Positions 31,649-33,598 of a stretch of 64,000 nt of DNA are shown here, in pieces. Made by a program: the position numbers and the translations under genes. Each line of letters starts with the position of its first letter. Position 1 is the stretch's first letter. Where the stretch lies: positions 128,001-192,000 of the forward strand of contig CAVXEP010000020.1 of assembly GCA_963760795.1 (NCBI GenBank), written 5' to 3'. The notes under the pieces were generated by a model. It was not told the DNA's origin and made no database searches. It saw nothing but the letters and a program-made list of their open reading frames with translations. The DNA is from an uncultured delta proteobacterium (GTDB lineage: Bacteria > Desulfobacterota > Binatia > UBA9968).

Positions 31649-32663
31649 TTGAAGAGGTTTACGTTGTCAAAACATGGCCGTGCAATTCTACTGCGTTTGC
31701 TGATATTAATTCTCGGCGCGCCGGCGCTGCTTTGCGCCCAGGAGCGCTACATCGCCAGCTACGCCGGCTTTGCCGGCTTTCAAGCGCCGCTCTGGGCGGC
31801 GCAGGATTTTGGCTTGCTCGCCAAGTACAACATCAACTTGGATCTGGTCATGATCCCCGGCTCGGCGCGCGGCGCTCAGGCGCTGATCGGCGGTAGCACT
31901 CATTTTGGCCAGATCGACGGCACCGCGCTGATCAGCGCCATCAATCAGGGCGCCGATCTGGTCTTCATCGGCGCGTCGTTGAATAAATTTCCATTCAGCT
32001 TGGTTACGCAGAAGAGTATTCGCCGGCCGGCAGATTTGATCGGTAAGAAAGTCGGCATGGTGAGCTTCGGCGGCGCCCATGAAGTGTCGTTGGTGTTAGC
32101 GCTAAGAGAATGGAATATCCCGCGCCAGTCGGTCACGCTGCTGGCCAGCGGCCCAGCGGCTAATCGTTTGATCGCGCTGTCGAGCGGCGCTCTGGACGCG
32201 ACGCTGCTGGCGCCGCCGGAGACCGGTGAAGCGGTACGGCTGGGCCTGCCGACGCTGGCCAACATGACCGATCTTGAAAGGCGCTGCGTTTCCGATGAAC
32301 GTCATCGCCGCGCGCCGTTCCTTCGTCGAGAAAAACCGCGATATGGTCAAGCGCTTCATGCAGGCCTACAGCGAGGCGACCTACCAGTTCATCGCCAACA
32401 AGGAGAAGTCGACAGCGATGTATACAAGTAGGATGAAGCAGAAAAACCCCGCCGTGGTCGACGAGACCTATCAGTATTTCGCCAAGTCCTTCTCATCTCC
32501 GCCCCGCGTCTCCCATGAAGGCATGCGCCTCGCTCTCGACATGCTCGCCCAGCGCAATCCGGAAACCAAACTCGACATGAATATCGCCAAATATGTCGAC
32601 GAGCGCATCTTGGACGAGCTCGAGCGCGATGGTTTTTTTAAACGCATCGCCACCAAGGGCTAA
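31649..32663 (+). CDS. ABC substrate-binding protein, NMT1 family; frameshift near 32275
   Basis: PLWAAQDFGL, LIGKKVG; C-terminal YVDERILDELERDGF. Confidence 0.83.
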
Positions 32664-32695: not shown

Positions 32696-32763
32696 ACCAC
32701 GAAGCGCGAACAAAGTTCGGAACATAATTCCCGAACCCTTCGGGTCCTTCGTGCCTTCGTGGT
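32696..32763. repeat. ACCACGAAG...CTTCGTGGT palindromic repeat
   Basis: Same family as 20447 and 31553. Confidence 0.75.
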
Positions 32764-32833
32764 GAACGGGCATTTCGCGGGCATTTGAGCTCGGCCGCAA
32801 AGGCTGCTGCAACCTCATCGCGTTCAGCGTAGA

Positions 32834-33598
32834 ATGCCGAGCATGAGACGAATACTGATCTGGATTCGCCGCACGGTTGGCACGACCAAGATAGCGCGTC
32901 TACTGCACCGCCATTTGCCGTCGAGCAAGCGCTGCAAGGAATGCCTAGTGCCCTTCTTGGGCATCTTCGCCGTGCCTTATCAGCTGCTGCAGATTCGCCC
33001 GTCGCGCAAGAATCCCCATCTCTGTACCCTCTGATACGAGCTTGCTCCTCCGGGCGGGGAGACGAAAAACATCTCGGTCATGTTCGTCGACATCCGTGGC
33101 TACACCTCGCTGGTGGAACAGATGGAGCCCGTAGCAGTGGCGGCGCGGCTCAATCACTTCTACGAAATCGCCACCCAGGCGATCTTTCGCCATGACGGCA
33201 CCCTCGACAAGCTGGTCGGCGACGAAGTCATGGCGTTCTTCGGCGCGCCTCTGAATTGGCGGGATCATCCACAGCGCGCCGTGACCGCCGCATTGGAAAT
33301 CCTGCGCGGCGTTGCCGCATTGCCGGAGAAAGACCGTCTAGAGATCGGCATCGGCATTAGCACCGGCCCGGCCTTTGTCGGCAATGTCGGCGGCAAAGAC
33401 TTCACCGACTATACGGTCCTCGGCGATACCGTCAACGTAGCCGCGCGGCTCCAAGGCGCCGCCGCGCCAAGTGAAATATTGCTCACCCAAGATTCCTTCG
33501 ATCCGGTCGCCCGGCAGTTTCCCAAGGCGACGCGCCGCGAGCTTGAACTCAAAGGCAAGACCGAACCGGTGGTCGCCTGGGAGATCGCCCGCGAGTAG
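32834..33598 (+). CDS. Class III adenylate cyclase with N-terminal CxxC...CxxU ribbon; in-frame TGA at 33032-33034 (putative selenocysteine)
   Basis: ORFs 32834-33034 and 33080-33598 are in the same frame, separated only by TGA: RCKEC...NPHLCTL*YELAPPGGETKNISVMFVDIRG; catalytic DKLVGD and YTVLGDTVNVAARL motifs. Confidence 0.8.
33045..33061 (+). promoter_or_regulatory. Putative bacterial SECIS hairpin
   Basis: CTCC-(T bulge)-CC-GGGC-GG-GGAG; stem follows a 10-nt spacer after the TGA and the loop starts with G. Confidence 0.55.

Follow-up and report, generated by a model that had tools for sequence, protein, structure and literature searches.

A probable selenocysteine codon in a gene for a Cys-rich module fused to a predicted class III adenylate cyclase of an uncultured Binatia bacterium

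The window, a stretch of 64,000 nucleotides from an uncultured delta proteobacterium of the Binatia (contig CAVXEP010000020.1), contains on its + strand an open reading frame of 66 aa (32834..33034) and a second one of 172 aa (33080..33598), which share a common frame and are separated by no interruption other than a TGA at 33032-33034. When this codon is read through, a protein of 254 aa results, in which the pattern C34-x2-C37-x26-C64-x2-U67 is followed by YELAPPGGETKNISVMFVDIRG, exactly as an earlier note on this DNA had described it. In the alignment, the N-termini of the relatives (MKKLL..) match the second ATG at 32843, and the true start may therefore lie there, giving a protein of 251 aa. 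The coordinates of all features are compiled in the table. No signalling partner is conserved in the gene neighbourhood across 29 loci, and a functional inference is therefore not drawn from the surroundings; a phosphonate-type substrate-binding protein is encoded upstream in 8/29 cases and an amidohydrolase downstream in 5/29. Elsewhere in the assembly, apparent frameshifts are found in selD and in a substrate-binding-protein gene (31649-32663), and it is this one split gene that is covered by a spot-check of the earlier statement that the other gene breaks in the window are almost all frameshifts.

Features of the proposed selenocysteine-containing cyclase gene (positions within the window)
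Feature	Position	Strand	Details
Recoded CDS (proposed)	32834..33598	+	254 codons + TAG stop; TGA = codon 67, read as Sec
First knuckle C34-K-E-C37	32933..32944	+	TGC..TGC
Second knuckle C64-T-L-U67	33023..33034	+	TGT ACC CTC TGA; Sec codon 33032-33034
SECIS-like hairpin	33045..33061	+	stem CUCCUC 33045-33050, loop CGGGC 33051-33055, stem GGGGAG 33056-33061
Class III nucleotidyl cyclase catalytic domain (predicted)	33050..33595	+	residues 73-254
Cyclase key codons		+	D86 33089-91, K126 33209-11, D130 33221-23
Cyclase key codons		+	T194 33413-15, N201 33434-36, R205 33446-48
Met83	33080..33082	+	gene callers' start for the truncated 172-aa product; not conserved as start

The cyclase domain is matched by PF00211 (residues 77-244, E 1.6e-24, 86.9 bits with the curated cut-off at 21.9), which is the only Pfam family found in the whole protein at E <= 0.1, with no zinc-ribbon model among the matches. 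Its key residues, whose roles we take from their position in the CyaC numbering, are the two metal-binding Asp, the substrate Lys, the Thr and the NxxxR motif with the transition-state Asn and Arg, and their intactness, already remarked upon from the single sequence, extends to the family: D86, D130, N201 and R205 are present in 64/64 aligned relatives, K126 and T194 in 63/64. A Thr that replaces the substrate Asp is the hallmark of class IIIb cyclases, which are often bicarbonate-responsive, and this Thr is found seven residues ahead of the Asn in 63/64 rows. The domain is thus predicted to be a class III adenylate cyclase of the Thr type, class IIIb-like, and it is assumed to dimerize as is usual for the family. 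Strand beta1 comprises residues 73-88 in the AlphaFold model, and structural alignments to solved cyclases begin at residue 73, so that an ORF starting with Met83 is, as had been suspected, truncated by the first half of this strand.

Upstream of the cyclase lies a module with two C-x2-C knuckles, as in Cys4 zinc ribbons, the four ligand positions of which (C34, C37, C64 and U/C67) are invariant in 55/55 N-terminal modules; in the full-length rows, C34 and C37 are present in 63/64. The AlphaFold model of the full-length protein has a pLDDT of 91.5, with 85-92 for residues 21-72, and the module folded alone reaches 75.9. The two-CxxC metal ribbon proposed in the earlier note stands as far as the four positions are concerned; its fold does not bear out the name "ribbon", as comparison of the isolated module with solved structures gave a best Z of 2.4 with VIA-align and a best E above 7 with Foldseek. 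A relation to the FmdB-family zinc-ribbon selenoproteins (TIGR02605) was considered and rejected, the 77-aa module matching 0 NCBIfam families at E <= 0.1. The same genome encodes two Cys-form paralogs with an additional hydrophobic C-terminal tail, one of which has a weak DZR match (E 0.16). The module profile has 935 hits. Among 57 long matches to it, many of which are fragments or divergent, PF00211 is detected at E <= 0.001 in 33 and no family in 24, and in 2/57 a MerC mercury-transporter-like domain is fused to module and cyclase, which hints at a possible role in metal handling; MerC is not found in the paralogs of the same genome (the second paralog being judged by ORF inspection only).

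If Sec is inserted at codon 67, the CxxU motif, with or without the CxxC, might also act as a metal-free redox centre that couples the cellular redox state to the cyclase by a selenenylsulfide/selenol-thiol couple, as in thioredoxin-fold selenoproteins. In favour of such a function, no motifs are more frequent than CxxU and UxxC among the prokaryotic selenoproteins in Table 1 of the 2026 review PMC13188914, and the module yielded no match to a zinc-ribbon family or fold. A thioredoxin fold is likewise absent, however, and invariance extends beyond the CxxU pair to all four positions, which, with C-x2-C, some 26 residues and C-x2-C, are arranged in the usual pattern of a Cys4 metal site. Together with the MerC fusions in two database proteins, this makes a metal-free centre rather unlikely, and a regulatory metal or redox site composed of three Cys and one Sec is somewhat favoured.

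The identity of codon 67 is best judged by its relatives. Among 80 related loci in named genomes, the aligned codon is TGA in 28 and TGC/TGT in 51, with one locus (L061) unalignable, and among 80 metagenome loci it is TGA in 34 and TGC/TGT in 46. The TGA thus recurs in 62/160 loci, every other alignable locus has a Cys codon, and TAA or TAG occurs at this position in none of them. At the protein level, the column of residue 67 is Cys or Sec in 64/64 full-length rows, and the full-length database homologs that cover the site have Cys in 12/12, so that the homologs with a Cys at the fourth position, which the earlier note had mentioned, are confirmed. TGA forms, with 46-89% identity, are hosted by Binatia, by MAGs labelled "delta proteobacterium" and Syntrophobacteraceae, and by Dehalococcoidia, Chloroflexota and SAR202, Cys forms by Mycobacterium/Mycolicibacterium, Solirubrobacterales, Acidimicrobiales, Mesorhizobium, Sneathiella and other Alphaproteobacteria. 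These relatives were drawn from collections larger than a set of 401 genomes of the same phylum, including the source, in which everything found besides the source's own copy and its paralogs was a match to the cyclase domain alone, at about 40% identity. Within the family, the Sec state is found in two or more groups that are placed apart from each other, which would imply a repeated selection for Sec at one ligand position, and the family would be a widespread selenoprotein family that is absent from the catalogues searched.

The genome can be expected to decode such a codon, as it possesses selA (531 bits), selB, selD (379 bits) and a tRNA-SeC(tca), i.e. the complete set of genes for which a search had been proposed, and its selD has an in-frame Sec-TGA of its own. 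SelA was detected in 23/25 genomes with a TGA form, as compared to 8/22 genomes with a Cys form, and the two TGA-form genomes in which it was not found are both MAGs, of 3.8 and 1.6 Mb.

The bacterial SECIS element is a stem-loop that closely follows the UGA and has a G in its apical loop, and such a stem-loop is present here. It begins 10 nt past the UGA, RNAfold extends its stem to 33042-33065 with a bulged A, and a CGGGN loop on a stem of 6 bp is shared by 29/29 aligned sequences; part of this conservation is due to the protein, since the peptide encoded by the stem is itself conserved. The apical loop is located at nt 20-24 in the first group of sequences and at nt 22-24 in the second, and selD of the same genome has a GGUC/GACC stem with an identical CGGGC loop at nt 20-24, although that stem has 4 bp instead of 6 and the two proteins are unrelated. 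Pair 15-29 is U-A in 25 sequences and G-U in 4, with both sides altered, while at pair 18-26 there are 21 sequences with C-G and 8 with U-G. The covariation score of the hairpin is 0.136 versus 0.079 in shuffled alignments and was attained by 0/500 of these, but the number of pairs in which both partners are altered did not exceed that of shuffles (388/500), and the covariation support is limited to one pair in four related sequences. A conserved hairpin past the codon was not found in Cys forms, and the two that share the APPGGE peptide and hence can serve as controls (L119 and L123) have CCC/CCT and GGC/GGT in place of the CCG and GGG of the Sec forms, with fold energies of -4.0 and -4.6 kcal/mol versus -7.8 to -11.6 for the 15 Sec forms compared; L117, another close Cys form, in which the peptide is APEGGV, reaches -9.1 kcal/mol with a different, shifted hairpin. 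As a single sequence, the 69 nt past the UGA do not fold better than shuffles (z +1.63; 188/200 fold equally well), and no SECIS family was matched in Rfam, the sole match being an irrelevant lncRNA model (E 0.41).

The locus is usually annotated as if the TGA were a genuine stop, which would mean that the gene is split into a Cys-rich peptide of 66 aa and a separately initiated, shortened cyclase, two products that might associate. Dozens of records look like this, with gene calls of about 172 aa that span 67-68% of the query in most close relatives, there is an ATG at 33080, and the database contains 12 short proteins that correspond to the upstream half. These short proteins, which are matched by the module profile, end one residue before the Sec column in 12/12 cases. 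Against a split gene, the stop is TGA in 62/62 interrupted loci. Met83 is Met in just 9/26 Sec forms and L, V or I in the rest, the stretch of 15 codons from the TGA to Met83 shows conservation at the protein level and encodes the first half of beta1, and the + strand between the two ORFs contains no promoter-like site. As the TGA form is also almost confined to SelA genomes and the hairpin corresponds to the one of selD, a split gene is very improbable.

Low-level read-through of UGA occurs in bacteria, and the long product might in principle arise without Sec, either because TGA is reassigned or because a near-cognate tRNA for Trp, Cys or Arg reads it. Nothing specific speaks for this; TGA is the commonest ordinary stop of the genome, closing 614/1,563 long frames, and is therefore not reassigned, the homologs carry Cys at the site and not Trp or Gly, and with a complete Sec machinery and a SECIS-like hairpin at hand such a decoding is extremely improbable.

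Sequence support and selection have been assessed on both sides of the codon. Independent short-read assemblies retain the TGA, the codon being bridged, with no difference listed at 33032-33034, by X1 record 2 and by records of the RNA-library runs X15 and X16, of which the two RNA-library contigs may derive from DNA and, as contigs, cannot prove transcription. Over the 40 codons that precede the TGA, dN/dS is 0.02-0.16 (15 unsaturated of 19 comparisons), downstream it is 0.06-0.32, and synonymous divergence in the 15 codons past the TGA is below that of the upstream part in 19/19 comparisons and below that of the downstream part in 18/19. Some TGA-form loci have further defects (L052 TAG, L063 a second TGA, L069 frameshifts, L159 TAA, L171 TAG), which may reflect decay or assembly error. 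That the TGA of the window itself is due to a decaying pseudogene or to a sequencing or assembly error, for which these stops and the frameshifts in selD and in the gene at 31649-32663 could be quoted, is a reading that can practically be dismissed, as purifying selection, catalytic residues retained in 63-64/64 rows, contigs that keep the TGA and its recurrence at the same codon in 25 distinct genomes and 34 metagenome loci effectively refute it.

The four outcomes that had been named beforehand as speaking against Sec, namely TGC/TGT in the reads (judged here by contigs from independent runs), a genome lacking selA/selB/selC/selD, a TGA in no other genome, and homologs lacking Cys at this position, were all examined and none of them occurred; the Sec interpretation is supported. 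On the basis of these sequence comparisons, it is highly likely that the TGA at 33032-33034 is a Sec codon that is decoded by SelB, and it is very probable that the locus as a whole comprises a Sec codon, a single module-cyclase fusion and a putative four-ligand switch site. SelB and Sec-tRNA(Sec) would decode the UGA guided by the hairpin, and the product would be one protein of 251-254 aa, in which a module of about 70 residues (C-x2-C-x26-C-x2-U) is joined within five residues to the cyclase. The three Cys and the Sec may form one four-ligand site, most likely for Zn or another thiophilic metal, which could be either metal-bound or oxidised or emptied, for example with a C64-U67 selenenylsulfide. 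This state might be passed directly to beta1, which carries the catalytic Asp86, and thereby switch cAMP synthesis, and Sec in place of the fourth Cys could render the site more reactive or more metal-avid. As translation past codon 67 needs Sec-tRNA, the cAMP output would also respond to the selenium supply. It is possible, though a tentative suggestion, that this is the first selenoprotein of second-messenger signalling, in which selenium belongs to a Cys3Sec site that is regulatory and not catalytic and forms the hinge to the cyclase, so that the cAMP output of these soil and marine bacteria would respond to oxidants or thiophilic metals by way of a selenolate ligand, and to selenium.

Known prokaryotic selenoproteins are mostly redox enzymes and in some cases transporters, and a confirmed Sec cyclase would add a signalling enzyme to the selenoproteome, in which Sec would occupy a metal or redox site of probably regulatory function. 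In agreement with the earlier view that a characterized selenoprotein cyclase is not known, none is contained in the catalogues of selenoproteins that were searched (up to 2026): nucleotide cyclases are absent from the entries of Table 1 of PMC13188914 and the selenoprotein list of a 2022 review, and from the text and one supplement of BSepDB 2026, the deep-Sep 2025 supplements and the GOS 2008 supplements. Two of the TGA-form loci (L056 and L057) lie in Dehalococcoidia UBA1141 and isolate 10f4566d, which rank among the most selenoprotein-rich genomes (BSepDB Table 2), and as pipelines annotate the gene in two pieces, a very small Cys-rich ORF and a cyclase that is truncated, the selenoproteome counts of these two are underestimates. 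Predicted selenoproteins with Sec in a knuckle or metal site are listed in Table 1 of PMC13188914, namely FmdB-family putative regulatory (UxxU), dual-CXXC-motif small, metal-binding and mercuric-transport proteins. These proteins likewise have Sec in place of a CxxC-type Cys, as a proposed metal ligand and not as a catalytic redox residue, but they are small stand-alone proteins or transporters that are not fused to a signalling enzyme.

With regard to the cyclase, the fold is shared with CyaC of Spirulina platensis (1wc1; 1wc1_A; Z 26.7, rmsd 1.6, 181 residues aligned) and with CyaB of P. aeruginosa (3r5g) and Cya2 (2w01), with Z of 26.0 and 25.2. All three align over 181-182 residues with an rmsd of 1.6-1.9 A and 31-35% identity, and their two metal Asp and their Lys, Thr, Asn and Arg are spaced as they are here, but they have no Cys3Sec/Cys4 module at the N-terminus and are not selenoproteins; over residues 1-56, no solved chains were matched. 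Hsp33 and the anti-sigma factor RsrA are zinc-thiolate redox switches, and the logic proposed here would be the same, in that oxidation or metal loss at a Cys4-type site alters the attached domain, although there is no kinship in sequence or fold and the output here is a cyclase. Literature characterising the Cys-form relatives was not found. Together with the paralogs, these relatives are among the closest systems, having the same architecture of module plus cyclase, 36-48% identity and all four ligand positions, and they differ in the TGC/TGT at the fourth position, which is usually followed by another Cys (C-x2-C-C in 25/38). If the Sec form is confirmed, the two would constitute a natural Sec/Cys pair for probing what selenium contributes to such a switch.

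The two frames, of 66 and 172 aa, lie in register with a TGA as their sole break, just as the earlier note had described them, and when this TGA is read as selenocysteine (Sec), a protein of 254 aa results, in which C34-K-E-C37 is followed by 26 residues, by C64-T-L-U67 and then by YELAPPGGETKNISVMFVDIRG. PF00211 (adenylate/guanylate cyclase) is its single Pfam domain (residues 77-244, E 1.6e-24), and an AlphaFold model made with a 64-sequence alignment has a mean pLDDT of 91.5 and a pTM of 0.88. Since strand beta1 spans residues 73-88 in this model, a product initiated at Met83, the start chosen by the gene caller, would lack half of that strand, in line with the earlier view that the shorter frame alone is truncated; this residue is Met in just 9 of 26 Sec forms. 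The catalytic residues are intact, as had also been claimed: the metal-binding D86 and D130 as well as N201 and R205 occur in 64 of 64 alignment rows, and K126 and T194 in 63. The cyclase part is a canonical class III domain, with CyaC of S. platensis as the best structural match (Z 26.7, rmsd 1.6 Å, 181 aligned residues, 35% identity), besides CyaB of P. aeruginosa (Z 26.0) and Cya2 (Z 25.2). A Thr at the substrate-specifying position characterises cyclases of class IIIb, a class with several bicarbonate-responsive members.

Coordinates of the recoded gene, its surroundings and related genes of the same genome
Feature	Sequence	Position	Strand
Read-through cyclase gene	window	32834..33598	+
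Upstream frame	window	32834..33034	+
In-frame TGA (codon 67)	window	33032-33034	+
Downstream frame (from Met83)	window	33080..33598	+
NMT1-type substrate-binding-protein gene	window	31649-32663	
Its two overlapping frames	window	31649..32431; 32274..32663	
Intergenic repeat element (36 nt)	window	32730-32765	
selD (L004)	contig C11	~1948-2900	-
Cys-form paralog (L197)	contig C34	73735-74847	-
Cys-form paralog (L198)	contig C32	430658 onward	+

A protein search gave 3,710 relatives, the closest of which (65-98% identity) are nearly all annotated at about 172-195 aa with a start just past the TGA position, and full-length relatives form a smaller set of 52-59% identity. The Cys-form homologs named in the earlier note do exist: in all 12 full-length proteins that cover the site, it is occupied by Cys within a CT[LMS]C-YE motif. 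When the codon aligned to U67 was read from DNA, the 80 loci of named genomes had TGA in 28 and TGC or TGT in 51, besides one unalignable frameshifted copy (L061); with two loci from unpublished genomes (L039, L043) left out, TGA stands in 26 of 78. TGA loci come from metagenome-assembled genomes (MAGs) labelled Candidatus Binatia, 'delta proteobacterium', Syntrophobacteraceae, Dehalococcoidia, Chloroflexota and SAR202, and Cys loci from Mycobacterium/Mycolicibacterium, Solirubrobacterales, Acidimicrobiales, Mesorhizobium, Sneathiella, other Alphaproteobacteria and one Sericytochromatia MAG. A further 80 metagenome loci had TGA in 34 (15 in the 'U-YE' group of the window and 19 in a 'U-D' group that is more divergent and has the motif C[GS]MC...SRKNPxMCN[LIY]-U-DD[IV]LPTGGAE) and TGC or TGT in 46, and neither TAA nor TAG was found at this codon in either set. 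Some TGA loci have extra defects, namely a further TAG (L052, L171), a TAA (L159), a frameshift (L069) or, at codon 189 of the match, another in-frame TGA (L063). These may reflect decay or assembly errors, and the additional TGA of L063 may alternatively be a second Sec codon.

In a quick maximum-likelihood tree that left out the Sec/Cys column, the Binatia-type Sec forms make up a single clade (9 rows, SH-aLRT 99). It is nested in a larger group (29 rows, support 100) where Sec forms of Chloroflexota are interleaved with Cys forms, and the U-D Sec group (7 rows) stands amid Cys forms in the other half. On this tree, which is midpoint-rooted and so gives the changes no direction, parsimony requires 5 switches between Sec and Cys, or 2 if just the well-supported branches are counted. 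One Dehalococcoidia genome has three TGA-form paralogs (L050, L063, L074) and another has two (L055, L059); the window's own genome has two Cys-form paralogs, both of which begin directly with the N-terminal Cys/Sec module and end in a hydrophobic tail that probably spans the membrane. With a profile built from just the module, 935 cluster representatives were matched in a set of 1.84 billion proteins (282 at E <= 1e-10). All 12 short matches examined end in ..RKNPxxCxx, one residue short of the Sec column; they are the first halves of other TGA-form genes, cut off from the cyclase part.

The genome of the window (6.58 Mb, 35 contigs, 88.9% complete) has all four components of Sec synthesis and insertion that were searched for: selA (531 bits), selB (whose frame of 647 aa includes the SelB wing domain), selD (379 bits) and a tRNA-Sec of 95 nt with anticodon tca. 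The selD gene is itself interrupted by an in-frame TGA, within the classic ..AAG-U-AAKLGPGDL sequence, and shortly before this codon it has an apparent 1-nt frameshift at a four-A run, which is probably an assembly error in a homopolymer and fits frameshifts elsewhere in the assembly. In an independent check on the genomes of the relatives, SelA was found in 23 of 25 distinct TGA-form genomes (21 of 23 without two unpublished ones), the two without a match being MAGs of 3.8 and 1.6 Mb, and in 8 of 22 Cys-form genomes. A reassignment of TGA is ruled out, as TGA is the ordinary stop of 614 of the 1,563 stop-to-stop frames of at least 400 codons in this genome.

Counted from the U of the UGA, a 6-bp stem (nt 14-19 / 25-30) around a CGGGN loop (nt 20-24) recurs in every one of the 29 aligned TGA sequences, from the window and 28 loci. 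Pair 15-29 is U-A in 25 and G-U in 4, with both sides altered (Ala GCU to GCG and Glu GAG to Val GUG), and pair 18-26 is C-G in 21 and U-G in 8; third-codon positions in the stem are fixed, and in the loop that of the first Gly codon is free among C, T and A. On this structure 88.8% of cells are paired, versus 52-71% with the 3' side slid, and the covariation score of 0.136 (0.079 in shuffles) was attained by 0 of 500 shuffles, a supportive but thin result, because pairs with double changes are no more numerous than in shuffles (388/500) and the four covarying sequences are related. A single-sequence fold after the UGA is no better than shuffles, and the region matched no Rfam family. More weight as support for an RNA element is carried by two other observations. 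The selD of the same genome, an established selenoprotein gene, has a GGUC / GACC hairpin with an identical CGGGC loop at identical nt 20-24, and two close Cys forms with the same APPGGE peptide (L119, L123) have CCC/CCT and GGC/GGT where Sec forms have CCG and GGG, with folding energies of -4.0 and -4.6 kcal/mol versus -7.8 to -11.6 in 15 metagenomic Sec forms. A third close Cys form with another peptide, APEGGV (L117), has a different, shifted hairpin (-9.1 kcal/mol), and the U-D group has its own, UUCC-CACC / GGY / GGUG-C-GGAA, with the loop at nt 22-24.

In Nei-Gojobori comparisons of the window with 19 relatives, which are not independent because the window is the partner in all, dN/dS is 0.02-0.16 for the 40 codons upstream of the TGA (15 non-saturated comparisons, pS 0.45-0.98) and 0.06-0.32 for the cyclase domain. 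Synonymous divergence drops in the first 15 codons past the TGA: all 19 comparisons give a lower value there than upstream, and 18 of 19 a lower one than downstream, as would be expected of coding sequence that also has to form an RNA structure. The TGA itself also stands at the level of contigs from public sequencing runs: one DNA contig (X1 record 2) and two RNA-library contigs (X15 record 10, X16 record 15), the latter being no proof of transcription, bridge the codon with at least 31 nt on each side, and among the differences listed (40 of 50) none falls on it, the nearest being 33031 C>T and 33043 T>C, both synonymous. Nearby, an NMT1-type gene is split by a frameshift, and an intergenic element ending in CCTTCGTGCCTTCGTGGTGA looks like a REP- or MITE-like repeat family; its 20-mer has 85 copies genome-wide (<=3 substitutions), often in inverted pairs 45-70 nt apart, and its word depth in soil runs is ~2,364 versus ~7 for the flanks.

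The recurrent TGA, the Cys homologs, the Sec machinery, the hairpin and the purifying selection all bear out the Sec interpretation of the earlier note, and on this comparative evidence the UGA is very probably decoded as Sec; the recoded cyclase is a real feature. In 55 N-terminal modules C34, C37, C64, the U/C column, G43, K59-N60-P61 and G74-G75 are invariant, so far as sequences tell placing the four Cys/Sec positions under absolute constraint. The module is predicted to fold, with a pLDDT of 85-92 within the full-length model and 80-85 when modelled alone, and neither a likeness to solved structures nor a match to curated families was found for it. The four residues may together bind Zn or another thiophilic metal at a single site, with Sec as the last ligand tuning reactivity or metal affinity, and as no more than five residues separate this site from beta1, which bears Asp86, the state of the site could gate catalysis. 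Such a role as a metal or redox switch has slightly better than even chances. The main functional rival is a CxxU redox couple free of metal, against which fusions to a MerC mercury-transporter-like domain give a weak hint towards metal handling: among 57 long module matches, 33 have PF00211 at E <= 0.001 and 24 no family, two have the MerC-like domain ahead of module and cyclase, and one has cNMP-binding and Crp HTH domains behind the cyclase (these three are the database proteins P0234, P0260 and P0218). The last arrangement would be a self-contained regulator that both produces and senses cAMP.

No selenoprotein cyclase was found in the literature searched, though subscription-only papers and other supplements might still hold one. 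The word 'cyclase' is absent from the main texts of GOS 2008 and deep-Sep 2025, each with four supplements that also lack 'adenylate' and 'guanylate', and from the searched parts of the Sargasso Sea 2005 selenoprotein paper, Olavius 2007 and a 2022 review (main texts), of a 2026 review (PMC13188914) with its Table 1 inventory, and of BSepDB 2026 (111 families), one supplement of which lacks all three words. In Table 2 of BSepDB 2026, which ranks bacteria by selenoprotein richness, Dehalococcoidia UBA1141 and isolate 10f4566d are in the top ten, and two of the loci studied here (L056, L057) come from records of these names. The nearest precedents, in PMC13188914, are a predicted FmdB-family regulatory protein, a dual-CXXC small protein and mercuric-transport proteins, which have Sec in Cys knuckles or metal sites and whose models are not matched by the module. 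By mechanism this is thus an ordinary Sec/Cys family of the SelB/SECIS type, though one that places Sec in a signalling enzyme, at a probable regulatory site.
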